A stretch of 56,251 bases of DNA, the filler included, from Fonticula-like sp. SCN 57-25 (taxonomy: Eukaryota), in NCBI GenBank assembly GCA_001724245.1. It is 2 parts of 2 records of this genome, joined end to end, with 100 filler letters (N's around TTAATTAATTAA, not from the genome) between each part and the next. Parts side by side here need not be neighbours in the genome. Positions count along the whole stretch, not along the records: positions 28,225 to 56,251 come from MEDX01000053.1; 1 more part is not named here. One strand, given 5' to 3'. Positions within the stretch are counted from its first letter, which is position 1, and each line of letters opens with the position of its first letter. Both the position numbers and the translations under genes were made by a program. Below the pieces are notes generated by a model that was given only the letters and a program-made list of their open reading frames with translations, was not told where the DNA came from and searched no databases. Positions 29,012-52,946 of the stretch are shown here, piece after piece.

Positions 29012-29065
29012 GCCCTAGCTATGCCGCCCGCTCGATTTCTCCAGGCGAGCCGCATAGATAAGGTC

Positions 29066-29482
29066 ATGAACAACATCCTCAAGACAATCGACAAGTCAAA
29101 GCTCCTCAAGCTCCTTGGCCAAGCGGGTGCGGTCGGTCTCGCCGGAGCCCTCGCCTATCTGATCCCTCACCTCACCGCCGACGTCGTCGGTCCGGTGCTG
29201 GCCGCCCCGATCGTGGTCGCCCTCGGCTTCGCCCTCACCGCCCTCAAGAAGCACCTCCCCGCCGACGTCGAGACGCCCGTCGTGGGCTCCCTGAAGGCCC
29301 AGTCCCTCAGGAATCTGGAGAGGATCGAGGCTCTCGACGTAGGGCTCCAGACGGGGAAGGTCGTCCAGGCCGTAGCGGACCACCTGGACCCTTCCTCGGA
29401 AGAGCCTCGGTGGATGACGGAGGAGGACTTCGAGGAGGAAATGCGGATGCTGGACGAGCGGACGGCGAAGGAGGGCAAGTGA
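29066..29482 (+). CDS. Two-TM membrane protein, possible holin
   Basis: Hydrophobic AGAVGLAGALAYLIPHL and VLAAPIVVALGFALTAL with a charged C-terminus; ATG 5 nt after ATAGATA. Confidence 0.55.
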   Translation: MNNILKTIDKSKLLKLLGQAGAVGLAGALAYLIPHLTADVVGPVLAAPIVVALGFALTALKKHLPADVETPVVGSLKAQSLRNLERIEALDVGLQTGKVVQAVADHLDPSSEEPRWMTEEDFEEEMRMLDERTAKEGK

Positions 29483-29658
29483 GGCTCCCAGCAACCGCCG
29501 ACCTATCGACGATCACCTCAGGCGTCCTGGCGTTGTCTATCCCACACCTGCCATCCACCTACGACGAATGGGCTGCGGCGGTGGCGATCGTCTCGGGCTT
29601 GGTGGGGATCGTGCTGCACGTCTGGCAATTTTTTCGGCCGTCGAAGGAGAAGTCGTGA
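29479..29658 (+). CDS. Small membrane protein (holin/antiholin-like)
   Basis: GTGA overlap with the upstream stop; TM segment WAAAVAIVSGLVGIVLHVWQFF with a basic tail. Confidence 0.55.
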   Translation: MRLPATADLSTITSGVLALSIPHLPSTYDEWAAAVAIVSGLVGIVLHVWQFFRPSKEKS

Positions 29659-29996
29659 GCGAGGAGCACTTCGACGACGAAGAGGTCTTCGAGACCCCTT
29701 GGAAGACCTCGAAGAAGGAAGTCACTCGATATTACGACGTCTTCACCAGAGACTCGAAGAGAGACAAGTTCTATCACTCCCGTCCGTGGCGGGACTTACG
29801 AGTGAGGAAGCTGAAGCTCAATCGGCTGTGCGAGGTCTGTGAGTCGGAGCTTCGACTCCAGGCCGCTAAGCACGTACATCACCTTGAGCCGATCGACACG
29901 GAGGAAGGATGGAGGCGTCGGCTCAAACTCGACAACCTCCAGTCGTTATGCGTCCCGTGCCACAACCGGATCAAGCGGGGAATCGGAAAAGGTTGA
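29655..29996 (+). CDS. HNH endonuclease, terminase-associated (HK97 gp74-like)
   Basis: FYHSRPWRDLR, LCEVC, VHHLEPI, NLQSLCVPCHN; directly upstream of terS. Confidence 0.92.
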   Translation: MSEEHFDDEEVFETPWKTSKKEVTRYYDVFTRDSKRDKFYHSRPWRDLRVRKLKLNRLCEVCESELRLQAAKHVHHLEPIDTEEGWRRRLKLDNLQSLCVPCHNRIKRGIGKG

Positions 29997-30100
29997 CCAG
30001 GGGGGCTAGGGGGTGCCCCTCGGGGTGAGACAGTTCACCGACCACAAAGTTCTTGTGTCATCTCGGAGCACTTTTAGGGCAAAAAGATATACCTACTAGC
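29997..30100. other. Probable cos/packaging region
   Basis: G-run-rich non-coding gap (GGGGGGCTAGGGGGTGCCCCTCGGGG) between HNH and terS, the usual cos location in HK97-like phages; the cut site itself cannot be determined. Confidence 0.5.
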
Positions 30101-30505
30101 ATGGCACGACCCGGACCTAAACCGAGAGCTAAGGCCGATTTCCTGAAGGGCCGACCCCAGCCCCCCGCCCACCTCTCCGAGGCCGAGATGGAAATCTTCC
30201 TGGAGGTGGTCGAAGAACTCGACAAGCAAGCCGTCTTGGCCGAGACCGACACGAAGTTGATCGCCCTCTACGCCAATACGGAGGCGATGGTGCGGCGTAT
30301 CGGCCGTGAGCTATCGACGGACACTCTGACCAACACGAGCGAGATACACAACAAGGTTTCGGGCAACCCGCTCCTCCCCCAATACTTCTCCGGGATCAAG
30401 CTCGCACAGCAACTCCTCTCGAAGCTCGGGCTCACGCCGACCTCCAGGCGTACCGCCCCCGGTGCCGCAGCCGCAGACCTGGCGGACAAGTGGAGGCTCC
30501 AGTGA
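30101..30505 (+). CDS. terS: Terminase small subunit (P27-like)
   Basis: MARPGPKP, PPAHLSEAE, D..LIALYAN, NPLL, KLGLTPTSR. Confidence 0.9.
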   Translation: MARPGPKPRAKADFLKGRPQPPAHLSEAEMEIFLEVVEELDKQAVLAETDTKLIALYANTEAMVRRIGRELSTDTLTNTSEIHNKVSGNPLLPQYFSGIKLAQQLLSKLGLTPTSRRTAPGAAAADLADKWRLQ

Positions 30506-32070
30506 GCCGCAAGAAGGAGGACGTCCGCCACAGGGGGCACAAGGTCTGCGACTGGATCGAGAGGTGCATCCCGCTCGTGGGCGACAAGCTCGGGCAGTCC
30601 ATCAAGTTGCCGACCTGGCAACGCCTCATATTCGAGACGATTTACGGCACCCTCGACGAGGAGGGTAAGCGGATCATCCAGACCGTGTATATCCAGCTTC
30701 CCCGCAAGGCGGCGAAGACCTTCATCGCAGCATTGTTCATACTGATCGCCCTAATCGCAGAGGGCAAGGGCGATCAGGAATGCTATTGCGGTTCGTGGAC
30801 GACGAAGAACTCGGCACGCATCTTCCGCTACCTCTTGACGATCATCAACAGCGATCCATATCTCAAGGCCAACTTCCGTGTGAACCACGGGCAGAAGGAG
30901 CTTGAGTGGCTGCCGACGGGCAACACCTTCAAGAGCCTCTCGGGCAATCCCGAGAACACGCACTCGATCGCCCCGTCGGTCATGGTCATCGATGAGTTGT
31001 GGATGTTCAGGGGCGAGAAGGGGCGAGCCCTCTACGAAGGTCTCACGTCGGGCGATTCGGGGCGAGAAGAGCCGCTCACGGTGATCATCACGACGGCCGG
31101 CACCAACAAGCAATCCGTCTGCCACGAAGAATACCAGTACGCCAAGAAGGTGCAGGCGAAGCCGTCCGAAGATCCGAGTTACCTGCCCATCATCTATGAG
31201 ATGGGCGAAGAGGACGACCCCTTCGATGAAGCTAACTGGTACAAGGCCCAACCAGCCCTGTACAACCCGGAGACCGGCGAAGGGTACGTGAGCCTGGACA
31301 AGTATCGCAAGGTCGCCGAGAGGGCGAAGACCAATCCACGCATCAAGAACTCCTTCCTCCAGCTTTACCTAAACAGGTGGGTGGAGAGTTCCTTCGGCTG
31401 GATACCCTCGGAAAGCTGGGACGCCTGCAAGACGAAGTTCTCGCTCGACGACCTGAATGGGAAGAAGGCGTACGGCGGCTTCGACTTCGGCCTCACCCGT
31501 GACCTGGCGGCGTTGACCCTCATCTTTCCGATGCCGAACGGCAAGTTTCGTGTCCTCAAGTGGGCGTGGGTCGCCAAGGGGACCGTGAACGAGCGGATCG
31601 AGAATCAGGACCGAAGGTACGCCCAGTGGTTTGAGAATGGCTTGATCCGAGTCACCGAAGGAGAGGGAACCGACCACGAGACGATCGAGCGCCAGGTGAT
31701 CGAGATATGCAAGCAATTCGACGTCAAGTTTATATGTGCCGACCCGATGGCGTGCGGCGAGACCCTGAAGAATTGGAGGAAGGCGAAGCTCCAGACCTTC
31801 GAGTGGAGGCAGAGCAACATCCAGGCGACATCTCAGGCGGCGAAGCGGATCGAATCATTGATCTTGAACAAGAAGCTGGAGCACAACGGCGATGAGGTGC
31901 TGAAGTGGTGCGTGACCAACGCCACGGCAAAGACCGATATTTACGACAACTTGAAGATCGACAAGCAGTGTCCCGAAGGCCGGATCGACCCGTTGATGGC
32001 CATGGTCTTCGCCATGGGCGGACACCTCGGTGCAAAGAAGGTCGTGAAGCCCGGAATGATGAAGTTGTGA
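30502..32070 (+). CDS. terL: Terminase large subunit
   Basis: LPTWQ, Walker A-like PRKAAKT, Walker B VMVIDEL, IITTAG, nuclease GGFDFG..DLAAL and RIDPLMA. Confidence 0.96.
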   Translation: MSRKKEDVRHRGHKVCDWIERCIPLVGDKLGQSIKLPTWQRLIFETIYGTLDEEGKRIIQTVYIQLPRKAAKTFIAALFILIALIAEGKGDQECYCGSWTTKNSARIFRYLLTIINSDPYLKANFRVNHGQKELEWLPTGNTFKSLSGNPENTHSIAPSVMVIDELWMFRGEKGRALYEGLTSGDSGREEPLTVIITTAGTNKQSVCHEEYQYAKKVQAKPSEDPSYLPIIYEMGEEDDPFDEANWYKAQPALYNPETGEGYVSLDKYRKVAERAKTNPRIKNSFLQLYLNRWVESSFGWIPSESWDACKTKFSLDDLNGKKAYGGFDFGLTRDLAALTLIFPMPNGKFRVLKWAWVAKGTVNERIENQDRRYAQWFENGLIRVTEGEGTDHETIERQVIEICKQFDVKFICADPMACGETLKNWRKAKLQTFEWRQSNIQATSQAAKRIESLILNKKLEHNGDEVLKWCVTNATAKTDIYDNLKIDKQCPEGRIDPLMAMVFAMGGHLGAKKVVKPGMMKL

Positions 32071-33621
32071 GTGCAGGCCCCTATATACGGCATGCCAAAT
32101 CTGCCGAAGAAGAAACTGAAGGGGACCATCGATCGGCAACCGATCAAGACCCGCACATTCACAAGGGTGTTGAGCACCGAGGCCCTCTTCCCTCGTGTCA
32201 ACGGGCGGGCGAAGAATCTGCCCGCCGACAACTACTTGAACCATCACGCCGTCCAGGCGATCGTGAGCGACTTCGCCCAAACAATCGCCGCTCTGGACGC
32301 TTACGTATTTGAAGAGCGGGACGGCGTCAAGGTGCGGATCGACGACCACCCGGCCACGAAGACACTGGCCAACCCCTCGGCGAGGATGCCGGGCTTCGAC
32401 CAGCGTGGGGCGAGCGTCGTCGATTATTTCATCGAGGGAGAGGCGTTCCTCGAAGTGATCCCGACGGCCGACCCGACGCTCTCCAGAAGGAAGTATCCGT
32501 ACCTCGAAATCCCGCAGCGTGGTTCGGTGAAGCCGACGGTCAAGGATGGTCTCGTGACCTACACGACCACCAGGGGCGAGATCGGCCCCGAGGGCATCGT
32601 TCATGTGAAGATGCCCTCGGTGGACGGCGGTACGAGCGGCTCCAGCCTGTTCACCTCTTGCCGTCAGGCCCTCGATCTAGCGATGGCTGCGGAGGCATAC
32701 GCCACCGACATCCTCGAAAAGGGAGGCATCCCGGCGGGGTTCTTGGTCTCCAGCGAGGAGGTTGACGCCAAGCAGGCTCGCAGCATCAGGAAGACTTGGA
32801 AGAAGCTGCACGCCGGCCCCAACAACCGGGGCGAGATCGGCCTCTTGTGGGGCAGTCTCCGCTTCGAAAAGACTGGATTGACGCCCGACGAAGTGCAACT
32901 CAACGCAACCCAGGAATACGCCATCCGGTCTATCGCCCGGATCTTCCGATATCCGGCGAGCTACCTCCTTGGCACCCCACCCACCGAAGAAGATCGGGTG
33001 CAGTTCTTCCGAACGGTCCGTTCCCACCTGGAGCCGTTCGAGGCGGCGTACACCTTCACCCTATTGTCCGACGAGGACAAGGCGAAGGGCAGGTACATCG
33101 AGTTCGACACGTCGAGCTTGAACCGGATCTCGCCGGCCCAGATCGCCGCTATCACGCCGCTACTGGACTACGGCCTCTTCACCGTGAACGAGACCCGCAA
33201 TATGTTCGGCTACCCGCCGACGGCCGGCGGCGACGTCCGTCCCGTGGCAGTCAACAATATCAGGTATGTGGATGCGAGTGTGCCGCTTGATAGCGGTGTG
33301 ACCGAGCCCGCACCCATGGCACTCCCGGCCCCGGCCACCGAGCCGGCCCCGACTAACGAGCCCTCGAAGACCGACGCCCAGCGTGCCGCCATCGAGGACG
33401 TAGTCGGTCGGCTGCTGCGACGTGCCCGGAAGAACGTGGCCAAGGCAGGCGAGGACGTGGAGGCCATCGAGGCGAAGGAGATGGCGTTCGTCAGGACGAC
33501 GGCCGAAGTCTACTGCCCTGCCTTCGGCCTTGAGGTCGAAGCCTTCGTGGCGGTCATGAAGGAGGAAGTCTTCACGAATACGGCTATCGAGGAAGTGGTC
33601 AATCTCATGGAGGTGAAGTAA
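32071..33621 (+). CDS. Portal protein (HK97 family)
   Basis: Follows terL; HPATKTLANP, GEAFL, GIVHVK, GGIPAGFL, IARIFRYP, FTVNETRNMFGYPP..GGD. Confidence 0.93.
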   Translation: MQAPIYGMPNLPKKKLKGTIDRQPIKTRTFTRVLSTEALFPRVNGRAKNLPADNYLNHHAVQAIVSDFAQTIAALDAYVFEERDGVKVRIDDHPATKTLANPSARMPGFDQRGASVVDYFIEGEAFLEVIPTADPTLSRRKYPYLEIPQRGSVKPTVKDGLVTYTTTRGEIGPEGIVHVKMPSVDGGTSGSSLFTSCRQALDLAMAAEAYATDILEKGGIPAGFLVSSEEVDAKQARSIRKTWKKLHAGPNNRGEIGLLWGSLRFEKTGLTPDEVQLNATQEYAIRSIARIFRYPASYLLGTPPTEEDRVQFFRTVRSHLEPFEAAYTFTLLSDEDKAKGRYIEFDTSSLNRISPAQIAAITPLLDYGLFTVNETRNMFGYPPTAGGDVRPVAVNNIRYVDASVPLDSGVTEPAPMALPAPATEPAPTNEPSKTDAQRAAIEDVVGRLLRRARKNVAKAGEDVEAIEAKEMAFVRTTAEVYCPAFGLEVEAFVAVMKEEVFTNTAIEEVVNLMEVK

Positions 33622-34241
33622 TGGCGATTCAGCATAAGTCCTTGAGCAAGATCCAGGCCCAGAACCTCGAAGGCCGCACCTGGATTCACGGCGTCGGCTG
33701 TGTGTATGGCGATAAGTCCCTACCTATGGACGACCAGGGCACAAGATTCATCTTCAAGCCGGGGTGCTTCTCATCTTGGCTCGGCCAGGACGGTCACGAC
33801 GTCCGCATCCTCAAGCATCACAACGAAGAATACATTCTCGCCCGGCAACGCAACGGCACCGTGATCGTGGAAGACACCTCAGCCCAATTGAATCTCCGTT
33901 TCGCACTGGACTCGACCAACGAAGGGAAGGACACGGAGATCCAGGTGAGGGACGGCTTGCTCACGGAGATGTCGGTGGGGTTCATCCTCTTGGAGGCCGA
34001 GGAGATCGAGCCTAACGTCTGGCTCGTGACTGAGGCGTACCTCGATGAAGTTTCAATCGTAACCGTGCCGGCCATGCCCAACACGAACGTATGGATCGAG
34101 GAGAAGAGGAACCAGGCCCGACGATCCGCAGCCGCATTCGCACGGGCGAAATTCGAGAGCGTGTGCATAGATAATCGAAAGCTCAAGTGTGCAGTCATCC
34201 TAAGATCGACGGGCCGCTCGAACCAGTCCTCCAAGTCCTAA
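33621..34241 (+). CDS. Prohead protease (HK97 family)
   Basis: FKPGCFS, VRILKHHN, EMSVGF, LDEVSIVTVPAMPNT. Confidence 0.92.
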   Translation: MAIQHKSLSKIQAQNLEGRTWIHGVGCVYGDKSLPMDDQGTRFIFKPGCFSSWLGQDGHDVRILKHHNEEYILARQRNGTVIVEDTSAQLNLRFALDSTNEGKDTEIQVRDGLLTEMSVGFILLEAEEIEPNVWLVTEAYLDEVSIVTVPAMPNTNVWIEEKRNQARRSAAAFARAKFESVCIDNRKLKCAVILRSTGRSNQSSKS

Positions 34242-34286
34242 GACCTATGGCGGGCGATCACCAAACCGACTAAATCCCATAAATGG

Positions 34287-35609
34287 ATGGACAAACAAAT
34301 GACGGAAGAAGAGAAGCAGGCCCTCATCGCTGAGGCCGAGCAGATCGCAGCCCTTGGGGACCAGGCCAGCCCGGAGCAGATCGCCCGCCTGGACGAGATC
34401 ACCAAGGCCCTCGAAGAGGACAACGCCAAGGCCGCCGAGGTCGTCGCCGAACTCCAGAAGGCCGGCAGCATCGAGAAGTTCGCACGAGCCAAGGAGGCCA
34501 TGGTGAGTCTGAAGACCGAGACCGAGAAGTTCGCAAGCCGCCCGGCCCCTCGCAAGACCGAGGCCCCGGCCGTCCACACGAAGAAGTGGAAGTACGACCT
34601 CAAGCGGGCTTTCCAGGGGATCGCCAAGGAGAGGACCCTTGACGGCATGGAGGGCGAGTGGAGCCAGGAGCGCCGCAAGCAGTTCAGCGGTATCCGTAGC
34701 GTGGTCGGCGAGCTTGTCCCCACCCGTGCCTTCGCCAACTACGGCAAGGTGGAATTCGATTGGGTGACTGGCGACACGCCGACCTTGCTGGAGCCGCAGC
34801 ACGATGGCCGCTACGGCGACGTTCAGCGTGATTACGACCCCCTGAGGGACATGGGCGTCACGATCCACACCGGCAAGACGCACGCCTTCAGCAGCGGCGT
34901 CTATACGGCCGACCCGGAGCTTCATTTCCCGGGCGAAAACCAGACCGCCCCGGCGACCAAGCCCGAATATCGCAAGTACGACTTCAAGCCGCATACTGGC
35001 CAGGCCCGTGTAGCCGTCAGCCACGACGCCCTGTACAGCAACGAGAATGTCGATGAACAGCTTCGTCGGGCTCTTGATCCGTCCGTGCGTGTCGGTGCCG
35101 CCAAGATCGCCATCAGCGGCGACGGCGTGACCGAGCCTTATGGCCTGTTGACCGACCCGGACAACGCATCGAGGATTATCACCTCGATCACGTCCGTATC
35201 ACGGGCGAACCTCAAGAAGATGCAATATGCGGTCCGCAAGGGCAATTTTATCACCAACAAGTTCTCGTGGCTGGGCAATTACGACGTGTCGAGCAAGCTC
35301 GATAGCACGCCTGAGGAGAGCGGCTTCCCGAAGTATATCCTGGGCGACGACGGCAAGGTGTACGGTGATCCGTTCTACGGGACCAACATCGTGCCGAACA
35401 TGGGCTCTCCGGCCACCGGCGTGCTCGTGTACGGTGCCTTCGAGTTCCTGGAGGTCGCCTTCTTCGGCCCGGCCGACGCCGTCGAACTGATCGTGGACCG
35501 CAACACCCTGTCGAGCAAGGGCATGGTCCAGTACACGGCCCTCGTGTCGCTCGACGTCAATACGGCTCGCCCTGAGGCGTTCAGCGTGGCCAGCAAGATC
35601 GCAATCTAA
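34287..35609 (+). CDS. Major capsid protein (HK97 fold with N-terminal delta domain)
   Basis: Coiled-coil N-terminus, GENQTAP, ISGDGVTEPYGLL, C-terminal ARPEAF; follows the protease and precedes a strong hairpin. Confidence 0.92.
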   Translation: MDKQMTEEEKQALIAEAEQIAALGDQASPEQIARLDEITKALEEDNAKAAEVVAELQKAGSIEKFARAKEAMVSLKTETEKFASRPAPRKTEAPAVHTKKWKYDLKRAFQGIAKERTLDGMEGEWSQERRKQFSGIRSVVGELVPTRAFANYGKVEFDWVTGDTPTLLEPQHDGRYGDVQRDYDPLRDMGVTIHTGKTHAFSSGVYTADPELHFPGENQTAPATKPEYRKYDFKPHTGQARVAVSHDALYSNENVDEQLRRALDPSVRVGAAKIAISGDGVTEPYGLLTDPDNASRIITSITSVSRANLKKMQYAVRKGNFITNKFSWLGNYDVSSKLDSTPEESGFPKYILGDDGKVYGDPFYGTNIVPNMGSPATGVLVYGAFEFLEVAFFGPADAVELIVDRNTLSSKGMVQYTALVSLDVNTARPEAFSVASKIAI

Positions 35610-35631
35610 CCCATTGGTTAAGCCGATCACG

Positions 35632-35664
35632 AAAAGGGCCTGTCAGAGATGACAGGCCCTTTTT
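35632..35664 (+). terminator. Rho-independent terminator after the capsid gene
   Basis: AAAAGGGCCTGTCA-GAGA-TGACAGGCCCTTTTT perfect stem with T tract. Confidence 0.9.
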
Positions 35665-35688
35665 CGTTTCCAGAGCATAGATAACATC

Positions 35689-35922
35689 ATGAACACCAAA
35701 TACATCACCAGCGTGAAGCTGGTATCGAACTGCATCTACAAGATGAACGGCGAACTCGTGGAGGGTAAGCCGGGCGAGATCCTCGAAGCCTTCCCGAAGC
35801 CTGTCGCTCTCAAGATGGTCCGCAACGGCGTGGCCGTCCTGACCAACGGCAAGGGACCGAAGCCGAAGAAGAAGGCCGAAGTGGAGGTCGTGGAAGTCGA
35901 TGGCGAGACCGAGGAAGTCTGA
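35689..35922 (+). CDS. Small head-module protein
   Basis: 77 aa directly after the capsid gene; VKL..GEILE.FP..VA.KMV.NGVAV pattern with Lys/Glu-rich tail; ATG 5 nt after ATAGATA. Confidence 0.75.
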   Translation: MNTKYITSVKLVSNCIYKMNGELVEGKPGEILEAFPKPVALKMVRNGVAVLTNGKGPKPKKKAEVEVVEVDGETEEV

Positions 35923-36832
35923 TCAATACTGGAGCGGTGGGATAGGCGATTGCCTGGTCCTGGAGTCGCATTGGGAGACGCCTCCACGGGCCATCTATTG
36001 GAGGTGTCGAGCCCGGCCGGATCTTCAAAAACCCCTCTTTGAAGTCGCCTACCCGAAGGTGCGGCACGTCAACCTCCTCTCCCACCTGACCGAGGATGAG
36101 GAGCGTATGGCGGCCCTGAACGGCTGGGACGACGGCGGGGAGCACACCCCCGAAGGCGTCGAAGACTGGACGGTTCACACGAAGTTCCCCGAGTTCAAGA
36201 AGAACCCAGGTTCCTTCCGTCGCTCCAGGTTCCTCGAAGTCAAGCTCGCCGACATCAAGAAGTTCAACCTCCCCGAGCGGTACTTCGTGTGTCAGCACGA
36301 CACCCCATATAACGGCCAGTCGATGCGACAGCATAGACAGATAGCAGGCCCGGAATGGGAGGTCGTGCGTCGGCAGGCGTGCGGGCTCCCGGTCGTCGTC
36401 GTCGGCTCGAAGGGCTCGATCCCGTGTCCCGACTGGTGCCTCGACCTCGTGGGAGAGACCAGCCTCGCCGAGAGTGTCGAGATCCTGAAGGGGGCGGTCG
36501 GCTATATCGGGATCGACTCGGCGCTCAGCATCCTGGCAGCCCAACTCTTCGAGGCCGACAAGCTGGCCATCAAGTGGCACGGCCCGTGGCTCTGGCAGAA
36601 TCGCAGCGTGTACTACGCCCCGCACAAGTCCTTCGAGTTCCTGCACAAGCAGTTCAAGGCGTCGGCCGTGCCGCAGCTACCGAAGACGGTGAAGGTATTG
36701 AAGCCGCTCGTGTACAGGCTCGACATGATCGAAGCGGGCGTCGTCCTGGAGGACGTGCCGCACAAGTTGGCGTCGGACTGGATAGATAGGGATATGGCCA
36801 TGCTTACCGACAAACCCGAGGTATCAAGTTGA
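35900..36832 (+). CDS. GT9-like (GT-B) glycosyltransferase with extra C-terminal domain
   Basis: N-terminal GGIGDCL and DLVGETSLAESVEILKGAVGYIGIDSALSILAA match GT9 heptosyltransferase-family motifs. Confidence 0.8.
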   Translation: MARPRKSDQYWSGGIGDCLVLESHWETPPRAIYWRCRARPDLQKPLFEVAYPKVRHVNLLSHLTEDEERMAALNGWDDGGEHTPEGVEDWTVHTKFPEFKKNPGSFRRSRFLEVKLADIKKFNLPERYFVCQHDTPYNGQSMRQHRQIAGPEWEVVRRQACGLPVVVVGSKGSIPCPDWCLDLVGETSLAESVEILKGAVGYIGIDSALSILAAQLFEADKLAIKWHGPWLWQNRSVYYAPHKSFEFLHKQFKASAVPQLPKTVKVLKPLVYRLDMIEAGVVLEDVPHKLASDWIDRDMAMLTDKPEVSS

Positions 36833-38206: not shown

Positions 38207-38233
38207 TGGCCGTCGCCTGAATAGATACCTTTC

Positions 38234-38692: not shown

Positions 38693-39065
38693 CCTCTCCG
38701 TCTACACGAAGACCTTTCAGGCCCTCGATCCGGTGCCGGTGTGGCTTTGGATCATCCCCGAGGAAGAGGGCTACCCGTGCGTCGTGTATGCCCCCGTCAA
38801 CGACCTGCCTGGCCACGACCACGACGGCATCACGACCTATCGACGTGCGAAGTACCAGATCGATTGTTTTTCGGAGGACCCCACCGAGGTCAGGAAGCTG
38901 GGGGCGAAGGTGGTCTCGACCTGGGCCTTCTTCAAGGGCGAGGTGGAGGGCGTCCAGATCGGCCGTGCGAAGGTGGAGGCCAACGAACCCACCGAGGAAC
39001 TCGCCCGAGACGGGAGAGTCTTTCGTCAGCGGTTGTCTTTGCTCGTGGAATACGAGGCGTCGTGA
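38685..39065 (+). CDS. Tail completion/terminator protein (DUF3168-like), copy 2
   Basis: IPEEEGYPCVVY, DHDG, YQIDCFS..VRKLGAKV...FKG; GGAGG before the TTG start. Confidence 0.7.
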   Translation: MLDLSVYTKTFQALDPVPVWLWIIPEEEGYPCVVYAPVNDLPGHDHDGITTYRRAKYQIDCFSEDPTEVRKLGAKVVSTWAFFKGEVEGVQIGRAKVEANEPTEELARDGRVFRQRLSLLVEYEAS

Positions 39066-39097
39066 ATAGATATAGCATCATCCATTTGGAGGTATAG

Positions 39098-39538
39098 ATG
39101 GCGGCAGAGTACAACATGAACGCCGGGCACAAGCTGCACGTCTGGAACGGCACTGCTTACGTGCAGGTGAAGGGGTGTGAGAACTACTCGGGGTGGGGCC
39201 AGTCCTGCGGCGAGATCGACGTGGCCGACCACGACGACCCGAGCGTTAAGACGATCAACTCGGGGCGGATCGACTACGGCAACGTCACGGTGACGTATCG
39301 AGAAGTGCCGAGCGATCCCGGCCAGACTTACGTCTTCGGCAAGGTGTCCGTCCTGGACGACACGGGCGGCGTCCTCATCTGGAAGTACGTGTACCCGGAC
39401 GGCACGACCAGCAAGTTCTTCAAGGGCCACGTCACTTCTCGGGCCGAGGCCGATCACAACCTCGAAGGTCCGAAGAAGGGCACCTTCACGATCCGGCGTG
39501 TAGGCCCGGCCACGACCACCGACCCCAGCGACGACTAA
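39098..39538 (+). CDS. Major tail tube protein
   Basis: EIDVADHDD, SGRIDYGNVTV, DPGQ, YPDGT..FKGHV, TFTIR; strong GGAGG. Confidence 0.88.
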   Translation: MAAEYNMNAGHKLHVWNGTAYVQVKGCENYSGWGQSCGEIDVADHDDPSVKTINSGRIDYGNVTVTYREVPSDPGQTYVFGKVSVLDDTGGVLIWKYVYPDGTTSKFFKGHVTSRAEADHNLEGPKKGTFTIRRVGPATTTDPSDD

Positions 39539-39556
39539 TCACACAAGGAGCCAATA

Positions 39557-39865
39557 ATGGTAGACAACGTAAAGAATAGACTTATCGCCTTGAGCAAGAG
39601 GAAGCAGACCCTCCAGGCCGTGGAGATCGACGGCGAGTCGGTCGGCTTGTACGTGAAGTACCTGACTTCGGGCGAACTCATGGAGCTTCACGAGGTCGGA
39701 GACAACGCCTTCAAGGCGTGCGTGATCCTGGCTTGTGACGACAAAGGTCTTCGGGTTTTCGAGAGGCCCGAGGAGGTCTCACAGCTTGACCGGGCGATCA
39801 TCAAGTCGATCGTCGATGAGGGCGTGAAGCTCAACGTCCCTCCGACCGTTGACCTAAAAAACTGA
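39557..39865 (+). CDS. Tail assembly chaperone (gpG-like)
   Basis: Between tail tube and TMP; ends ...DLKN on slippery A AAA AAC (39856-39862). Confidence 0.85.
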   Translation: MVDNVKNRLIALSKRKQTLQAVEIDGESVGLYVKYLTSGELMELHEVGDNAFKACVILACDDKGLRVFERPEEVSQLDRAIIKSIVDEGVKLNVPPTVDLKN

Positions 39866-40143
39866 TCGAGGACGACCCTGAGATGCAGTTCGTCGGGCGG
39901 CTCTGTGTCCTGTTGGGCAAGTGGCCGTCCGAGGTCTTGTCACAGCCCCGTGAGGATATCGACCTCATGCGGGCGTACTTCTCGGTCGTCCCCGAACCCG
40001 ACGGCTACCTCGAAGCGGCCCTCATCCGTGATGCCATTTTTGCAGCGATGAGCGGCAAGCCGTCCGACCCGTCCAAGCATTACTTCCGCTTCAAGAGCGA
40101 GAAGGAGCAGCAACAAGAGTTCATCAAGTTCCTGGAGTTTTAA
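39856..40143 (+). CDS. Frameshifted tail chaperone extension (gpT-like, -1 frame)
   Basis: The -1 frame is open from the slippery site (KKLIEDDPEMQFVGRLCVLLGKWPSEV...) to TAA at 40143. Confidence 0.82.
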   Translation, partial: KKLIEDDPEMQFVGRLCVLLGKWPSEVLSQPREDIDLMRAYFSVVPEPDGYLEAALIRDAIFAAMSGKPSDPSKHYFRFKSEKEQQQEFIKFLEF

Positions 40144-42048
40144 GTGGCCGAACTACAGTCAGTCAATGCAACACTGAAGGCCAACGCCAACCCGTTCAAG
40201 GCGGCGATGGGCGAGGCTTCAGGTGCAGCGGCGGGCTTCTCCAAGGAGTTGAAGAAGTCTAAGAACGACCTCGATTTCTTCGGCGGCGGTATGAAAGCCC
40301 TCGCCGATACCGTCGCCAAGGAGCAAAAGAAGCTCCAGTACGACCCCAAGCACGGCTTCACGAAGGGCGTCATCGAGGAAGAGAAGAAGCTCGCCGAAGC
40401 TGCGGCGAAGATGCGATTCACGTTCAAGGGGTTGGGCGAGTCGCTCCAGACCGTGCATGGGCCTACCGACTTCCTCGGCAAGGGCCTGTCCAAGCTCAAT
40501 CCCACCCTGTTGGGCGTTGGTGCCGCAGCCGGTGCCGCCGTGGCCGGGCTCGCAGCGGTCGGCGTCGCTGCGTATGCGATGGTTTCTCCGCTCGTGGAGG
40601 CCCGTCAGAAGGCCAACGACCTCGGCATGCAGTTGGGCACCTCGCCAGAGTTTATCGAGAAGTTCACCAAGGCTGCGGGATCGTTGAGGATCTCCAGCGA
40701 GGACGCCGGGGACGCCATCAGCGACTTCGCCGAGAAGCTGGGCAAGGCCCAGATTGGCGACACCGACCTCGAAAAGTTCCAGTTGGTGGGCCTCAGCCTG
40801 GAGGACATCAAGGACGCCGATCCGTCCGAAGTCCTCATCAAGGCCCTTGGCCATATCAACCAACTCGGCACGGCTGCACAACGCCAGAGTGCGGCCGTCG
40901 AACTCTTCGGCGACAAGGGCAAGGAGCTACTCAGGGTCTCGCAGCTAGGCGAGCAAGGCATCCGTGACTTGCTCCAGGCCCAGCCCGTGTCCTCGGTCGG
41001 CGGGAGCCTGGACGAGATCACGAAGCACCTGACGACCATCACCGAGGGGGCGAAAGCCTTCGGGGCCGCTCTCGGCGAGTACGTCGTCCCGGTCGTGGAG
41101 ACGATCACGGGGGCATTGGCCGGAGTGGTTGAATACTTCCAAGGCCCGTCCACGACCTCCACCTCGAAGCCCAAGCCCATCCAGGAAGAGGTACGCAGGA
41201 CCATCACCTTGCAGTCCTCCGACGACCAGACCGACGCCCGCAAGGCCGCAGTCGAACAGGGCAAGAAGCTGGTGTCCCTCCAGAAAGAGGTTGTCTCGCT
41301 CTCAGATAAGAACGCCTCGCTATGGAACAAGATCAGTGAGGACTTCAAGGAGTCAACCCTCCAGGTGAAGACCATGGTCTTCGAGTTGGAGAAGGTCAAA
41401 GCCAGCACGATGGCCATCGAGGGGTTGAGGGCTCAGTCGGTCGGCGGTGCCGACGACGCCGCCTTCGATCAGATAAACGACCTCCGCAAGTACAGCGATG
41501 CGACCAAGGAGGAACTCCAGTCGCTACGTGTCCAGGCCGAGAACGCACTCAAGACCGGCCTCGGTGGAAGCCTCACTCCCGCCGACATCCGTCGTGAAGC
41601 CCTCTCCAAGATCGACGCCGACAGGTACTTGAACGATGAGGAGAAGGGCACGGCCCGGAAGAACGCCGATCGTGCCTACCTACGGGACCAGCGGGCTTTC
41701 CTCGAAGGTCTCGGCAAGATCACGACGCCGTTGGAATCGGTGTCGGTGAAGCTGGAGGAACTCGCCCATCAGGCCGAAATCGGTGCGATCACGGGCGACC
41801 AGTTTAAGGAGTTGGTCGGCAACCTGGCCAACGAACGGGCCGGTGATCGAGACAACAATCGGCTTGCCAACGCCTACGTGGTGGGCTCGACGGCCGCAGC
41901 CTCCAGGATCGCACAGTGGCAGGCGGGTTACGACCGCAACAACGACGCCCGACAGACCGCCAAGAACACGAAGGACATGTTGACCGAGTTGAAGACCCTG
42001 AACCGCAATCTGCCCAAGGCGGTGTCGTCCATGGAGGAAGACCTATGA
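40144..42048 (+). CDS. Tape measure protein (634 aa)
   Basis: Longest tail gene, Ala/Gly-rich and helical, N-terminal ATLKANANPFKAAM, AAVELFGDKGKELL. Confidence 0.88.
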   Translation: MAELQSVNATLKANANPFKAAMGEASGAAAGFSKELKKSKNDLDFFGGGMKALADTVAKEQKKLQYDPKHGFTKGVIEEEKKLAEAAAKMRFTFKGLGESLQTVHGPTDFLGKGLSKLNPTLLGVGAAAGAAVAGLAAVGVAAYAMVSPLVEARQKANDLGMQLGTSPEFIEKFTKAAGSLRISSEDAGDAISDFAEKLGKAQIGDTDLEKFQLVGLSLEDIKDADPSEVLIKALGHINQLGTAAQRQSAAVELFGDKGKELLRVSQLGEQGIRDLLQAQPVSSVGGSLDEITKHLTTITEGAKAFGAALGEYVVPVVETITGALAGVVEYFQGPSTTSTSKPKPIQEEVRRTITLQSSDDQTDARKAAVEQGKKLVSLQKEVVSLSDKNASLWNKISEDFKESTLQVKTMVFELEKVKASTMAIEGLRAQSVGGADDAAFDQINDLRKYSDATKEELQSLRVQAENALKTGLGGSLTPADIRREALSKIDADRYLNDEEKGTARKNADRAYLRDQRAFLEGLGKITTPLESVSVKLEELAHQAEIGAITGDQFKELVGNLANERAGDRDNNRLANAYVVGSTAAASRIAQWQAGYDRNNDARQTAKNTKDMLTELKTLNRNLPKAVSSMEEDL

Positions 42049-42971
42049 TTAGATACTACGACTACGACACCGACGTGTCTGCATATAACTTCGAGGTGAT
42101 TCCACGAAATACGGGGAAGCACCTCGCCGCCACCATGGACGGCACGAACTCCAGGACGCAAGCCTGGAGGGTCACTTCAAAGCCCGTGGAGGGCAAGTAC
42201 GCCCGTGAGAATCGGGTCATGATCGCCCTGTATCAGGCGGGCGTGGCCCTAGGTGCCTACTGGCAAGTTGACGACGAGATCGATGAAGCGCTGAGGTGCA
42301 AGAGTCTGTCGATCGATTCCGCTGGTGAGGACGAGCCCGGCGTCTGGGAGGTGAGCGGCTCCTACGAGGTGCTGACTTTCAGCGGCAGTTCCACGGGCGA
42401 GGGAGGGTTCACCCCGATCGACCTGGAGCCGGACATCGAGGTGGGCAGCGAGATCGAGGAAGTCCCCTACGATCGGGACGCCAACGGCGATCCGGTCGTC
42501 AATGCGGCCGGAGACAAGTTCGACCCGCCGCTCACCAGGCCCGAGTATTACACGACGGTCGTGTACACCCGCAACGAGTTGGTGTTCTCGGCGACTTACG
42601 CCAACACCTGGAAGGGCAATGCGAACCTCGGGGCCTTCAGCGGTTACGCCGAAGGCTATGTGCTGTTCAGGGACGTGACCGCCAGGAAGGTCAAGCATCC
42701 ACAATTGGGGTTCTATTGGAATGTGACCTACACCTTCGTGGTCCGTGTGGACGCCGACAAGATCAAGGTGCTGAACACGGGTTATAGATACAAGCCGGGC
42801 GGCACCGGGGTTCCTCAACGGGCACTCGACGAAAAGGGCCAGCCGACGGCCGGAGATATCTTGCTGGCCGCCAACGGCGACAAGTTGCCCGACGGAGGTA
42901 CTCCCACCTACAAGGAGTTCCAGATCGCCGAGAAGATCGACTTCACCTCCTTGAATATCATTATCCCGTAA
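42045..42971 (+). CDS. Putative distal tail/tail-tip protein
   Basis: ATGA overlap with TMP; beta-rich; PVVNAAGDKFDPP and VLNTGY motifs; function from position only. Confidence 0.65.
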   Translation: MIRYYDYDTDVSAYNFEVIPRNTGKHLAATMDGTNSRTQAWRVTSKPVEGKYARENRVMIALYQAGVALGAYWQVDDEIDEALRCKSLSIDSAGEDEPGVWEVSGSYEVLTFSGSSTGEGGFTPIDLEPDIEVGSEIEEVPYDRDANGDPVVNAAGDKFDPPLTRPEYYTTVVYTRNELVFSATYANTWKGNANLGAFSGYAEGYVLFRDVTARKVKHPQLGFYWNVTYTFVVRVDADKIKVLNTGYRYKPGGTGVPQRALDEKGQPTAGDILLAANGDKLPDGGTPTYKEFQIAEKIDFTSLNIIIP

Positions 42972-42979
42972 GGACGAGA

Positions 42980-43336
42980 ATGGCTTATTCACCCAGAGCG
43001 AAGAAGAGGATCAGGAACGCCGTCCGTCGATCGGAGCAGCTTGAGCGAGGTGCGGGTCGTGGCGATGCTGTTGGCCATCCTCAGCCCATGTACCCGTTCC
43101 TGCTCGGCAAGCCGGTCGATACCATCCCGGCCGGCGGCACGGGCAAGGTCATCCCGCAGACCTTCTCAGGCGACGATCCCGACTATATCCCCGAGGACGA
43201 AGAAGATCCGGGGATACCTGTGCTCAATACTTCGGAAGTCGATCTCGTGGACGACGAGGACCAGTTGTATCTGTTCGCATGGGTTCTGGGCGTCTGGATG
43301 CCGATATGGACCAACAAGTGCTCGGAGGGATCATAA
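42980..43336 (+). CDS. Hypothetical tail-region protein
   Basis: 118-aa ORF, basic N-terminus (RIRNAVRRSE), acidic C-terminus, TAATG-coupled to the next gene. Confidence 0.7.
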   Translation: MAYSPRAKKRIRNAVRRSEQLERGAGRGDAVGHPQPMYPFLLGKPVDTIPAGGTGKVIPQTFSGDDPDYIPEDEEDPGIPVLNTSEVDLVDDEDQLYLFAWVLGVWMPIWTNKCSEGS

Positions 43337-44904
43337 TGCCATTGAATGGATTCGGCGATGGACTTCAATGCTGCTGCGGCTGCTGCAAGGTTATTTGCTC
43401 CGGCTGTCATGTGCCTTGCTCCACGGCAACATTCACTTATACCAACGCAACGCTTGGCACCGGCTCCTTTCAACTGTACTGGGACAAGGCGAACAAGAAT
43501 TGGTCTACGGAGTGCATCCCATTCGGTTCTGGGCGAATCAAGGCAACCCTGACCTGCACGACCGATGCTGAGCCTGTATTCCGCTTCCGCCAGTGGACGA
43601 CCGGCGATTGCTCCGGAACGCCTACCGTGGATTGCAGCACGCATACCCTCCACTCAACGGCTTGCAGCGGCGGCTTTTGGAGGCGATGGACGCCGGGTTG
43701 CGGCCTCAATTCCTACGGCTGGAGTGCGTTCGTGGTGAACGTCTCGGGATGCACAACCTCGTCCAACTGTTGTTGCAATGCCTGCGTCAAGGTGGTCGAT
43801 CCATGCGTGTCTGGGACGCCTCCGCTTGCCGGCTCGACCGTCAAATTGTACGACCCGGCCACTGCGACCTTGGTCAAATCCGTAACGACAAATACCCTGG
43901 GGCTCGCCTGTGATTTGCCGATTGGGATTTACAACATCGTCGTCGAGAAGACCGGCTATGAGACCCTGAACAAGACGGACGTCACCATGCATTGCAATGA
44001 GACGTTGACCTACAACCAACGGAGTTTGGGGCGGGTGCGATGCACCGGGATGTCCTGCAACGCCACGGCCGGGCGAGTGCCGACGACGTTCACCTTCACG
44101 AAATCCGGGCAGCCCACAGTTAGTGGGACCACCGGCGGTAGTGGGTATGTTGATCTTTACTTGACGGCGACGGGGACTTGGGCCTGGACGGCTACGGCCC
44201 CGAAGTTCCTCCCGCAGAGCGGCAACTATAACTACGCCAGCACATGCGGCACCTACAACTTCGGCGTGACCTCGACGCCGATCTCCACCCACTTTTGTGG
44301 GTGCAACGGCTTTGCCAACTCTCCAGAGCCGTTCAATAAGGTCGCCACGATCACGGACTGCGGCGGATCGACGAGCCTGGATATTTCGGGGTATGGCACC
44401 TACTGCGGTGCGACGACCTGTGTGGATCGTCCGATCGGTCCGACGACCTCGGCCCCGAACATGCCATTGTCATACTGCTGGGATAACGTCAACTGGCGGC
44501 GGCAGCTTTGCGGTACTTTGCCCTACGACGACGCTGGTGTCGCCAGCGTCAAGATTGGGCTATCGATATACGCTTCGTCGATGGCCACGCCGAGCGGTGG
44601 GCAAAAATCGCCTCAGCTATCCATGACCTGGAACGCCAATTGCGTCGAAGACTCGGATACCTTGCCCAACTGCAACCCGCCCGACATGCAATCGCAGACT
44701 TGGCGAGACGGTCGATGGACGTGCGACAACATCACGGTTGGGGGTGTCCAGTGGTATCACACCGGCTATGCCATTCATAGTTATGACCCTGTAGTGGTTG
44801 AGGTGTTTTTCGATCAAGTGCCGGAATGGGGTCCGGTATCCGGCTCGACCGCTCCACCTGGAGGCCCGCCTTGTCCCTCGATCATGCTCAGCGTTATTCA
44901 TTAG
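43336..44904 (+). CDS. Cys/Thr/Gly-rich tail-tip or receptor-binding protein with Ig-like segments
   Basis: N-terminal CCCGCC, internal CCC, LAGSTVKL...TTNTLG...LPIGIYNIVVEKTGY (carboxypeptidase-regulatory-like fold); about 36 Cys in 522 aa. Confidence 0.75.
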   Translation: MPLNGFGDGLQCCCGCCKVICSGCHVPCSTATFTYTNATLGTGSFQLYWDKANKNWSTECIPFGSGRIKATLTCTTDAEPVFRFRQWTTGDCSGTPTVDCSTHTLHSTACSGGFWRRWTPGCGLNSYGWSAFVVNVSGCTTSSNCCCNACVKVVDPCVSGTPPLAGSTVKLYDPATATLVKSVTTNTLGLACDLPIGIYNIVVEKTGYETLNKTDVTMHCNETLTYNQRSLGRVRCTGMSCNATAGRVPTTFTFTKSGQPTVSGTTGGSGYVDLYLTATGTWAWTATAPKFLPQSGNYNYASTCGTYNFGVTSTPISTHFCGCNGFANSPEPFNKVATITDCGGSTSLDISGYGTYCGATTCVDRPIGPTTSAPNMPLSYCWDNVNWRRQLCGTLPYDDAGVASVKIGLSIYASSMATPSGGQKSPQLSMTWNANCVEDSDTLPNCNPPDMQSQTWRDGRWTCDNITVGGVQWYHTGYAIHSYDPVVVEVFFDQVPEWGPVSGSTAPPGGPPCPSIMLSVIH

Positions 44905-45065
44905 CGAATAACAAGCAAACATGCGAGCGGCGTACTAGCCGGGCGGTAGTTCACTCAACTCTAAAAAGAAGAATCAAAAGCGGATGGGAGTTAGAGACGG
45001 CGATCTCAACCCCGGTCGACCATCGGTTCGACTCTTCGCACACAAAGAGGGCCGAGAACCATTAA
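44904..45065 (+). pseudogene. Remnant of an HNH-type homing endonuclease C-terminus
   Basis: Start-less frame ANNKQT...STLKRRIKSGWELETAISTPV resembles the QANN...TL..R...GW..E.A..TP tail of phage HNH proteins. Confidence 0.55.
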
Positions 45066-45587
45066 ATGTGCAGACACGAATTTTGTCCCATTAAAGAAGG
45101 GAAGTGCATCTCCGAGAAACCCGGTTGGGAGTGGGCTGAGAAGTTCGGCTTGCCCGAGGCGAACCCGACCCAGCGGCAGTTCCTCATCGAACAGTCGGCG
45201 AGGTGGAACGAGATCGTCGTCCATGAAGGGGAGAACCGGCCGAATCCGGTCTCCGGCTCGGCCTGCGACGAGTCCAAGGTGGTTGATGAAGTACCAGTCG
45301 AGACGGCCGTCTCGACTAGTGGTTGCGGTTGCGGGGGCAAGTCCTACCCCTCGCTCCTCACTCAGGCCGGCAACCTCGCCCGCTCAATCAAGAAGCATGT
45401 TGCCAACGGTATGGCGGCGGCGACCAAGGAAGAGCAGCAACGCCGGTTGGCCATTTGCGGCTCTTGTCCCTTGCTCAACGCCGCAGCCGGCCGTTGCCTG
45501 GAGTGCGGGTGCGTGGTGTCGATCAAGACTTCATGGGCTTCTGAGGCGTGCCCCCTGGGTAAGTGGGGCGGCACTGAAAAGAACTGA
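45066..45587 (+). CDS. Cys-rich protein with C-terminal DUF6171-like metal-binding motif
   Basis: RRLAICGSC....GRCLECGC...KT....EACPLGKW; also GCGCG and N-terminal C..C..C. Confidence 0.75.
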
Positions 45588-45610
45588 GCATGTCGTGGAT
45601 AGATAACGGC

Positions 45611-46942
45611 ATGCCGAACCAGGAATACAACTACAGCAACAACCTCTATACCACGGTGGCGACCGTCAGGGCTCCAGGCGGCTCCACCATCCAGGTGGCC
45701 GACCCTGACAAGTTCGCCGCCGTCGAGTGGCCAGTCCGCCTATCGGTCCTCAGGGACGACGGGTCGTTGTACGGCCTCTTGATCGCCATCTTCCGGGCGA
45801 CGGGAATCGTCGGTTCTGAGATCGCCGTCGATGGCGTCCTCGAAGGGACCGTCGATTCCACGATCGAGGTGGGCGACTTGGTGATGGTCGCCCAGACGGC
45901 CGGCGACTTTGACGACCTGTGGAACGCCCTCGAAGAGATCGAGACCACTCCAGGCCCTCAGGGTGCTCCAGGTGCAGACGGAGGTACTGGTCCTCAGGGT
46001 GATCGAGGCTCTCAGGGCTTCCAGGGTGCGGCTGGTCTTCAGGGTGTTCAGGGTGCTACCGGACCTCAGGGCGATCGAGGCCCTCAGGGAGCTACTGGTG
46101 TCCAGGGAGCTACTGGTGTCCAGGGAGCTACTGGACCTCAGGGTTCCGCTGGTCTTCAGGGTTCCCAGGGTGCGACTGGTCCTCAGGGAGCCGCTGGTCT
46201 TCAGGGTGTCCAGGGTGCGGCTGGAGCACAAGGTCTTCGAGGCTTCCAGGGCGATCGAGGCCCTCAGGGCTATCAGGGATACCAAGGACTCGGTACGCAA
46301 GGCCCCCAGGGTGGCGGCACACAAGGCCCTCAGGGAGCACCTGGAGTAGGCACTCAGGGCAACCAAGGTACACAGGGAGTTCAAGGTTCCCAGGGCGGTG
46401 GCAGTAGCCTGGCCCTCGGTGCGGCCGTTTCTGGTGCCACCAACAACAGGTTGCTCAACATTACCTCGGGCAACCTCTCGCAGTCCGCAAACCTCTCCTT
46501 CGACGGCTCGACGCTCGAAGTCCAGGGTGCGGTGAACCTCAAGAACACCGTCGGCTCAGTCGCCAGCACCTTCGACGCCAATGGTTACGGATTCGTGTAT
46601 ACGATGTCGTTCTCCTTGGCCAAATTGGTGGATCTCGCCACAGGCACGGACCTCACCCGAGGTGGGCAGATCGCAGGCTTCGCAGGGACGATTTCCAAGG
46701 TCAAGATTCAGGCGACCACCAACGGCTCGTCGGGCGGGTTCACGCTCCAGATCAATAAGAACGGCACTTCGATCTTCACGAGCAATCCCACGGTGGCGGC
46801 ATCCACGACCACTGTCCAGTCCTTCACGCCGACCACCACGACCATGGCTGAGAACGACGTACTCACGGTGGATTGCACGTCTACCGGGACCAGCGTCCAG
46901 AACGTAATGGTGACAATCTATGCTCTTGTGAGGAATGCTTAA
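45611..46942 (+). CDS. Collagen-like tail fibre protein
   Basis: Long Gly-X-Y tract ([12 protein letters not shown]) then a Thr-rich beta C-terminal domain; start placed at ATG 45611 (5 nt after ATAGATA), alternative 45590. Confidence 0.85.
45953..46396 (+). repeat. Collagen Gly-X-Y coding repeat (9/18-nt period)
   Basis: Recurrent CAGGG units, e.g. tandem GGAGCTACTGGTGTCCAG. Confidence 0.9.
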
Positions 46943-47511: not shown

Positions 47512-47521
47512 GGACTACATC

Positions 47522-52919: not shown

Positions 52920-52946
52920 ACTCAGGACAACAAAGGAGGTCCAACA

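Follow-up and report, generated by a model that had tools for sequence, protein, structure and literature searches.

How are the virion genes of a small, integrase-bearing phage transcribed if, as here, one and the same seven-letter word recurs among them, always on the same strand and in half of its copies at a fixed distance before an ATG? The question is raised by a window of 56,251 nucleotides (nt) from assembly GCA_001724245.1 (Fonticula-like sp. SCN 57-25), in which positions 28225–56251 make up a 28-kb contig of an uncultured phage whose late block, judged from PHROGs and Pfam matches, is that of an HK97-like siphovirus. The word is ATAGATA, and the answer favoured here, at somewhat better than an even chance, is that it forms a phage-specific promoter box of the −10 type, which would give rise to both leaderless and leadered late messenger RNAs (mRNAs). 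An earlier note, made from the sequence alone, had put forward a promoter interpretation; what stands of it is the exact word, its restriction to one strand and to the late block and its association with gene junctions, while what does not stand is one of the ATG codons lying five nucleotides beyond the word, which proves to be no gene start.

As to the bare counts, a recount of the eight positions given in the earlier note confirms every one of them: the exact heptamer occurs eight times in the 56,251 bases, always on the plus strand, not once on the minus strand and nowhere to the right of 45605, where 1.18 occurrences would be expected in the stretch, and none of 100 dinucleotide shuffles reaches eight. 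All copies are confined to 29054–45605, within the co-directional late block, and the word is absent from the integrase, the methylases and the early part. Variants with one mismatch are found ten times on the plus strand and ten times on the minus strand of the phage part, which is background, and therefore only the exact heptamer is enriched. For statistics of location the late block was taken as 29012–48004 (18,993 nt, of which 502 nt are non-coding under the gene list used here). Five of the eight copies fall within these 502 nt, for which base composition predicts 0.023. The three coding copies were set against a codon-shuffled background, as had been suggested, and 500 synonymous-codon shuffles gave a mean of 0.164 copies and a maximum of 2, so that not one shuffle reached three. 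They are, furthermore, spelled with rare codons (ATA makes up 7% of Ile codons and AGA 5% of Arg codons, and AGG is used too), which argues for selection acting on the word in DNA or RNA against codon preference, and they sit within the last 68–190 nt of their respective genes. Seven intergenic gaps in the late block measure 23 nt or more, and of these five hold ATAGATA and one holds a one-mismatch variant. It is these statistics of location that carry weight, because the crude Markov ratio of observed to expected occurrences, about 28, is not in itself unusual: ratios of 20–30 with a bias to one strand are common among coding-strand 7-mers of related loci. The pattern is real and strongly non-random.

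The second main line of evidence is the spacing between the word and start codons. In four of the eight copies an ATG follows after exactly five nucleotides (at 29066, 35689, 36794 and 45611), the probability of at least four such cases in eight being 6.5e-7, and in one further copy a GTG (38234) follows after six; these spacings had been noticed before and are as described. Four gene starts are involved (29066, 35689, GTG 38234 and 45611), and, as had been argued from the lack of room at such starts, not one of them has a Shine–Dalgarno (SD) sequence. Of the genes with a more distant box, the tail tube gene has GGAGG, the head-tail adaptor gene GAGG and the gene starting at 42980 AAGGA, the capsid gene being the exception, with none. 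Folding predictions begun at the start codon give the opening 6 nt of the four leaderless candidates a probability of being unpaired of 0.61–0.99, where 22 other genes average 0.54; this fits leaderless starts weakly, there being only four of them.

The individual copies, all on the plus strand, may be followed from left to right. Copy 1 (29054–29060) is found between g1 (29066–29482, plus strand, 138 residues) and the C5 methylase gene, which diverges from it across a gap of 54 nt; the ATG of g1, 29066, follows after 5 nt. This ATG is taken as the start of g1 because a homologue, P0085 (106 residues, 46% identical), begins at the same MNNI residues; the gene callers' start is 15 codons upstream (P0083). 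P0085 is the sole small homologue of g1 in 1.84 billion representative sequences, the other matches being g1 itself and four long repetitive proteins. The g1 product has no family match in Pfam, PHROG or NCBIfam, and its hydrophobic stretches resemble two membrane helices, as in a holin; it is the first gene of the late block, placed upstream of the HNH and terminase genes and not in a lysis cassette at the block end. No terminator was found in the gap between g1 and the HNH gene. Copy 2 (34167–34173) falls within the prohead protease gene (33621–34241), near its 3′ end, where it is spelled with the rare codon ATA followed by GAT; it has the motif TGn immediately upstream, and it lies 113–125 nt before the capsid start, depending on whether this is 34287 or 34299.

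After the capsid gene comes an intrinsic terminator (35629–35667, plus strand), made up of a 10-base-pair (bp) G+C-rich stem at 35636–35659 followed by five T; its folding free energy is −32.9 kcal/mol (z −6.34), and none of 200 shuffles folds as well. The earlier statement that one copy of the word directly follows this terminator is borne out, since copy 3 (35677–35683) starts 12 nt past the T-run. The ATG at 35689, again 5 nt on, opens g8 (77 residues) and is the first possible start of that open reading frame (ORF). Copy 4 (36782–36788), also preceded by TGn, is inside the 3′ end of g9 (ORF 35900–36832, plus strand), spelled with the rare codons ATA and AGG, and stands 40 nt before the TTG start (36829) of the adaptor gene, which overlaps the TGA stop of g9. 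Copy 5 (38221–38227), with TGn upstream, occupies the 27-nt gap after the neck gene and is followed after 6 nt by the GTG of g13 (38234–38692, plus strand, 152 residues); no start earlier than this GTG is possible, because the TAG inside the box itself closes the g13 frame. Copy 6 (39066–39072), again with TGn upstream, comes directly after the stop of the tail-completion gene and 25 nt before the tail tube ATG (39098). Copy 7 (42784–42790) is inside g19 (ORF 42045–42971, plus strand), by way of the rare codon AGA, and precedes the ATG at 42980 by 189 nt. Copy 8 (45599–45605), the last of those with TGn upstream, precedes by 5 nt the ATG (45611) with which the collagen-like tail fibre gene is taken to begin; if that gene began instead at another ATG in the same frame, at 45590, this copy would fall in its codons 4–6. 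Copies 1, 3 and 8 belong to one family of 24-nt repeats (D16), 71–88% identical, with the ATG included. Lastly, a one-mismatch variant, AAAGATA (30083–30089, plus strand), lies 11 nt before the ATG of the small terminase gene (30101), which has no SD sequence, and may, though this is uncertain, be a weak copy of the box.

The sequence flanking the copies was inspected for further conserved elements. TG is present at −3/−2 relative to the box in five of the eight copies (probability 1.8e-5), and G at −2 in seven; were the hexamer ATAGAT to occupy −12..−7, the TG would lie at −15/−14, which is the geometry of an extended −10 element. Apart from this TGn, the description of the box as a single element holds up: a search for a −35-like element found none, since among 5-mers anchored by position in −40..−4 the best is shared by five of the eight copies where 200 random sets give five to seven, and a consensus scan of the plus strand from 28225 to 48200 found no sigma-70-type promoter. 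There are weak A-rich and then T-rich columns at −19..−14 of the boxes, which, with so many columns inspected, are not convincing. Counting from the first base of each box, the position 18 nt on is an A in seven of the eight copies (+7 if +1 lies 12 nt after that base), and this too is not significant once the number of columns inspected is allowed for.

How, then, would the word work? On the promoter interpretation, ATAGATA would be the core of a −10-type element without a −35 partner, often preceded by TGn and read by a phage-made or alternative specificity factor. The evidence set out above supports indirectly that it acts as a promoter element and not as a by-product of coding or composition; recognition of the box by RNA polymerase, a transcription start on the start codon, late expression of the units and a phage-made or alternative factor are points that we infer from the layout of the DNA. 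At g1 (29066), g8 (35689), g13 (38234) and the fibre gene (45611) transcription by RNA polymerase would begin with the A or G that opens the start codon, so that leaderless mRNAs would result, which would account for the lack of a ribosome-binding site in these four genes. With +1 so placed, the box would be at −12..−6 and the TG, where present, at −15/−14. The other four boxes, which are 25–189 nt upstream of the next gene and in three cases in the 3′ end of the preceding one, would give leadered mRNAs. In this way the box would divide the 17-kb virion-gene block into about eight transcription units, of which copy 2 and the capsid terminator would frame a separate one for the capsid alone, while copy 3 would restart transcription directly after that terminator.

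Several points weigh against such a scheme, and it is convenient to take them together. First, ATG 36794, which the earlier note had counted as a gene start, is in frame inside g9 and opens only its last 12 codons before the stop. Secondly, the capsid gene has neither an SD sequence nor an adjacent box, and the HNH, portal and protease genes and those for both terminase subunits share a single copy 5 kb upstream, so that the box does not explain every start that lacks an SD sequence. The capsid leader (34242–34298) is A-rich and shows no special structure (z +0.4). A relative in metagenome X2 has a 1-nt deletion at 34296 (in one contig at a depth of 2.6, for which an assembly error is possible); if real, this would favour ATG 34299 over 34287 as the capsid start, which, with 29066 and 45611, would make three gene starts corrected relative to the gene callers' placements. 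Thirdly, a box five nucleotides before the start occupies the usual place of an SD sequence, and related loci carry words such as GGAGGTG there. Fourthly, eight promoters in 17 kb would be unusual for a small siphovirus. Fifthly, the hexamer fits neither TATAAT nor TANNNT, since ATAGAT has T at −11 and TAGATA has A at −7. The extended −10 consensus of sigma-70 involves a hexamer with A at −11 and T at −7, which makes it unlikely that a housekeeping sigma reads the box unaided. What is generally known of sigma domains suggests, for its part, that TGn suits a factor of the sigma-70 family with region 3 better than one of the gp55 type.

A further point on the same side is that no reader of the box has come to light: among the ORFs of 28225–56251 no sigma factor or activator is matched in PHROGs, Pfam or NCBIfam, and the same three collections give no gp55, gp33 or gp45 on this incomplete phage contig. 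The earlier observation that the window holds no sigma factor is thus upheld as far as family searches go, but it has little weight, as the contig is cut within the methylase gene; absence of a sigma is uninformative because most of the early genes are missing from the contig. The product of the first early gene, a protein of 198 residues resembling MerR/HTH_17, gave a single-sequence fold with a pLDDT of 43, too poor for structure comparison.

Conservation in relatives is the remaining point of difficulty. Megablast of 29000–46000 against phage records found no match, while the capsid protein has no match in viral contigs, one match at 24% identity in phage records and only itself in a set of 5.8 billion proteins. 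The large terminase has its best match at 55% (P0003, from a contig of 3.1 kb), the next, at 36%, being in a Planctomycetota bin. Terminase-profile scans of metagenome, genome and viral contigs yielded 80 + 60 + 80 = 220 loci (L001–L220), roughly 22–38% identical in the terminase. When 26 late proteins were compared by tblastn with 140 of these (L001–L140), no locus had more than four weak matches, and across the same 140 loci (1.76 Mb) ATAGATA occurs 32 times on the plus strand and 54 times on the minus strand, with at most three on the plus strand of any one locus, so that there is no excess. In those of the 220 loci that are at least 6 kb long, no A/T-rich word stands 5–6 nt before three or more long ORFs, the words found there being SD-like or G+C-rich. 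None of the relatives compared, which are only about 30% identical in the large terminase, shows the box. A scan of viral contigs with an 18-letter pattern of box plus start gave 43 matches, about the estimated chance number, mostly in A+T-rich contigs and with no clear enrichment. Two viral contigs of 40–41% G+C, L244 (6188–11157) and L252 (4694–8156), carry five and four copies of ATAGATA respectively on one strand and none on the other; they share three identical sites, and two copies are 5–6 nt before an ATG. It may be that the word is used in these contigs too, or that its recurrence is due to chance, the DNA being A+T-rich.

Closer relatives do exist, in the form of P0085 on a 13.5-kb contig and an integrase relative, P0090 (75% identical), on an 8.6-kb contig; scans of viral contigs for relatives of either were empty. 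The contigs of metagenome X2 are short and about 90–95% alike, one of them spanning 34146–34339 and so including box copy 2. In X4, another run of the same study, a 12-kb contig is about 80% alike over 43565–45193, in some of the distal tail genes, with replaced segments of 355 and 510 letters; it is from a related phage whose tail modules have been swapped.

Published systems that resemble this arrangement are of some help in judging it. The late box of T4, TATAAATA, lies at −13..−6, the T at −13 being poorly conserved, and is read by gp55 with gp33 and the gp45 clamp, while the variant in phage Aeh1, CTAAATA, begins at −12 (PMC1524935). What is shared is a lone, short, highly conserved, A/T-rich box without a −35 element, present in many copies before virion genes and in some cases inside the gene upstream; the box here would coincide with the T4 core position, −12..−6, only if transcription began with the first base, A or G, of the start codon, and ATAGATA is one base apart from the T4 core ATAAATA, with a G at −9 (PMC1524935). 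Unlike T4, five of the eight copies here have TGn upstream, and the phage would be a small, probably temperate, HK97-like siphovirus as opposed to a large T4-like myovirus. Four of the starts here would, in addition, be leaderless, and leaderless starts are not known to be the rule in T4 itself.

The closest worked example is Thermus phage Lalka27a, which has an integrase and 16 late promoters with a class-specific TAGGGT box and a C at −25; its transcription start sites are six bases downstream of the box, most transcripts begin on the A or G of the initiator codon, and the authors see no reliance on antitermination of the lambda type (bioRxiv 10.64898/2026.04.20.719267). Phage phiYS40 belongs with Lalka27a among Thermus phages having mostly leaderless late promoters. 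The resemblance is in an integrase phage with dense late promoters, a class-specific −10 box and a transcription start, here a predicted one, fixed a few bases after the box. Unlike in Lalka27a, the form TANNNT does not fit the box of this phage, upstream of which no C is conserved, and only four of the eight units would be leaderless. In Deinococcus, the −10 motif TANNNT lies 6–7 bp before leaderless ORFs, and genes carry either the motif or a ribosome-binding site (PMC12340547); an either-or of box and ribosome-binding site is seen here likewise. Taking ATAGAT as the hexamer, it stands 6 bp before three gene-start ATGs and the internal ATG 36794, and 7 bp before a start once, so that g1, g8, g13 and the fibre gene all combine a candidate −10 box 6–7 bp before the start with the lack of an SD sequence. 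The Deinococcus–Thermus motif is, however, a housekeeping-sigma one found genome-wide, whereas the word here is confined to the phage late block and is not TANNNT. Lone-box late promoters are also known in jumbo phages, where phage polymerases read AACA-N6-TA/G (AR9) and TATG (phiKZ) (PMC5312081). By analogy, the box would work like a T4 late or a Thermus-phage late promoter, without being filed as a member of either class. The kind of system has precedents that have been mapped in Thermus phages; new here are the word itself, its TGn and its occurrence in a siphovirus that is small and carries an integrase.

A bolder version of the promoter interpretation may be stated, which we hold only tentatively and consider possible rather than probable. 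It is that a small temperate HK97-like siphovirus expresses its whole virion module from at least eight single-box promoters of T4-late geometry and nearly T4-late sequence (ATAGATA at −12..−6), by means of a dedicated phage-encoded specificity factor, with half of the units leaderless, one unit restarting directly behind the capsid terminator, and one using the last 12 codons of g9, as a leaderless message, to feed ribosomes into the TTG of the adaptor gene. If that were true, gp55-like late transcription would not be confined to T4-like giants. The suggestions in the earlier note of a T4-like network, and of its standing in for lambda-style Q antitermination, are conjectural. Even on the more modest proposition, that the box is a promoter, a small siphovirus with an integrase would transcribe its late genes gene by gene from a lone −10-type box and make leaderless messages; for this kind of phage the textbook model is one late operon under antitermination. 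A search for whatever factor reads the box would then be called for. The word would also be a compact, testable promoter sequence, and the block a clean natural comparison of leaderless with SD-led genes in one operon-like setting.

Of the other explanations to be weighed, one places the signal in RNA: AUAGAUA, within one long late transcript, might be an endoribonuclease cleavage site, the enzyme being of host or phage origin, the site of a translational regulator or a substitute for the SD sequence, creating or controlling the downstream starts. Its confinement to one strand and to cistron junctions would suit this, as would the position of the five-nucleotide copies at the usual SD place, and cluster K mycobacteriophages offer a parallel in their start-associated sequences, where an exact word stands 3–7 bp before mostly ATG starts and a role in translation is suspected (PMC3203893). 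Like them, the word here is exact and asymmetric, in one orientation and a few base pairs before mostly ATG starts; unlike them (PMC3203893), it is 7 bp long where they are 13 bp, has no SD core where they contain AGGAG, is found in the structural half where they are in the non-structural half, and is in half of its copies far from a start where they always abut one. No role in ribosome binding could be played by the four copies that are 25–189 nt from the next start, and few transcripts would reach a copy directly behind a terminator unless a promoter stood there. The word shows no evident complementarity to the anti-SD sequence at the 16S 3′ end; TGn is meaningful in DNA recognition by sigma and is not known to have a meaning in RNA. 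Rfam recognises no family in 28225–56251. A signal in RNA is rated as unlikely.

Another explanation keeps the promoter and gives it to the host, the box being read by an alternative sigma of the host, or else by its housekeeping sigma, should the host phylum have a −10 element out of the ordinary, and so not being specific to the phage. The TGn of five copies would fit a factor of the sigma-70 family, family searches find no phage sigma on the contig, and the nearest named large terminases (31–36% identical) are those of Planctomycetota bins. What speaks against it is that no copy is found in the phage's early and lysogeny genes, the first that host polymerase has to read, and that the word fits none of the −10 forms checked (TATAAT, TANNNT and the T4 late box). 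Reading by the host is rated as improbable. Boxes of the sigma-28-like and sigma-K-like types were considered as well, and their consensus forms do not fit ATAGATA.

It could also be that the copies are sites for a DNA-binding protein at which no transcription starts, for instance roadblocks of the stoperator kind, by which an immunity repressor would silence virion genes in the lysogen. Stoperators of the L5 type are asymmetric words that occupy short gaps between genes and all point the same way with respect to transcription (PMC9283540), as the word here does, and the phage looks temperate, in view of its large serine recombinase and Bro-N/Ant gene. Those of cluster A are, however, 13-mers that also act as operators at early promoters (PMC9283540), as against 7 conserved bases here, or 10 with TGn, and passages of that source give no fixed distance between them and start codons. 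A matching operator would be looked for near the early genes, but on this incomplete contig no copy is found in the divergent region 52683–52838 beside the putative regulator genes, nor elsewhere in the early part. A roadblock leaves unexplained both the spacing of exactly five nucleotides before ATG and the missing SD sequences, so that sites of this sort are distinctly doubtful. Finally, chance, codon usage or a strand bias of the Chi-like or restriction-avoidance kind is barely credible, for although 7-mers with comparably high crude ratios and a bias to one strand are common in related loci, most of the copies are non-coding, the coding ones beat every synonymous shuffle and use rare codons, a link to start codons and gene junctions is not expected of Chi-like sites, and the word is in excess and not avoided.

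Two other functions for the word were entertained. Terminase recognition sites were set aside, such sites being clustered and ATAGATA dispersed, and targets of the methylases or of restriction were considered and likewise set aside.

It remains to describe the DNA in which all this is found. Positions 1–28124 of the window are a eukaryotic contig, joined to the phage contig by a linker, N44-TTAATTAATTAA-N44 (28125–28224, without strand), which is not biology and which we take to be a spacer of the kind used for stringing separate contigs together. Pfam searches of the first 24.3 kb find only eukaryotic, intron-split genes, among them CDC5/Myb_Cef, bZIP, ankyrin, FERM, RabGAP-TBC, NSUN2, SAP30 and a TAF5-type WD40 protein. 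Since the left half carries eukaryotic genes only and the linker intervenes, the phage is a separate, mis-binned contig; the adjacency is an artefact of concatenating the contigs of a bin, and there is no integration. The phage stretch is almost wholly covered, identically, by a single bioreactor metagenome run (X1), its possible source, and in the protein database the same capsid, terminase and integrase proteins are found on four contigs, the longest being 28,141 nt. The phage genome on the contig is probably incomplete: the contig opens inside the C5 methylase gene (28225–29011, minus strand, start at 29011), whose Pfam match covers model positions 2–163 of 324, and of the early region only the beginning is present.

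In the late block, PHROGs and Pfam place on the plus strand, beyond the genes whose limits have been given, the HNH gene (starting at 29568), those for the small and large terminase subunits (30101 and 30502), the portal gene (32071), the genes for head closure (37389), neck (37730) and tail completion (38682), the tape measure gene (40144) and the tail fibre gene (45611–46942). To the right of these, family searches identify a D12 methylase (47994–48848), the large serine recombinase (48866–50965) and an N4/N6 methylase (51169–52365), all on the minus strand, followed on the plus strand by the first early gene (52839–53435, its MerR/HTH_17 likeness being by Atlas), the Bro-N/Ant gene (53891–54829) and a gene for a helix-turn-helix (HTH) protein (54959–55888). 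The presence of the recombinase and the Bro-N/Ant gene suggests that the phage is probably temperate. Three classes of DNA methyltransferase (C5, D12 N6-adenine and N4/N6) are thus found on one 28-kb phage contig.

Repeats of several kinds are also present. At the right-hand end of the stretch a tandem 12-nt repeat (56139–56251) lies inside a minus-strand ORF that is open at the end, and is probably the reason why the contig stops at 56251. The tail fibre gene contains, at 45940–46400, long collagen-like repeats of 9, 18 and 27 nt, with a 68-nt register present in 13 copies. Directly 3′ of the HTH gene, at 55892–55984, a 40-nt unit occurs twice, 100% identical and 53 nt apart, each unit being itself an internal doublet of about 20 nt, and the pair resembles the iterons of replication origins.

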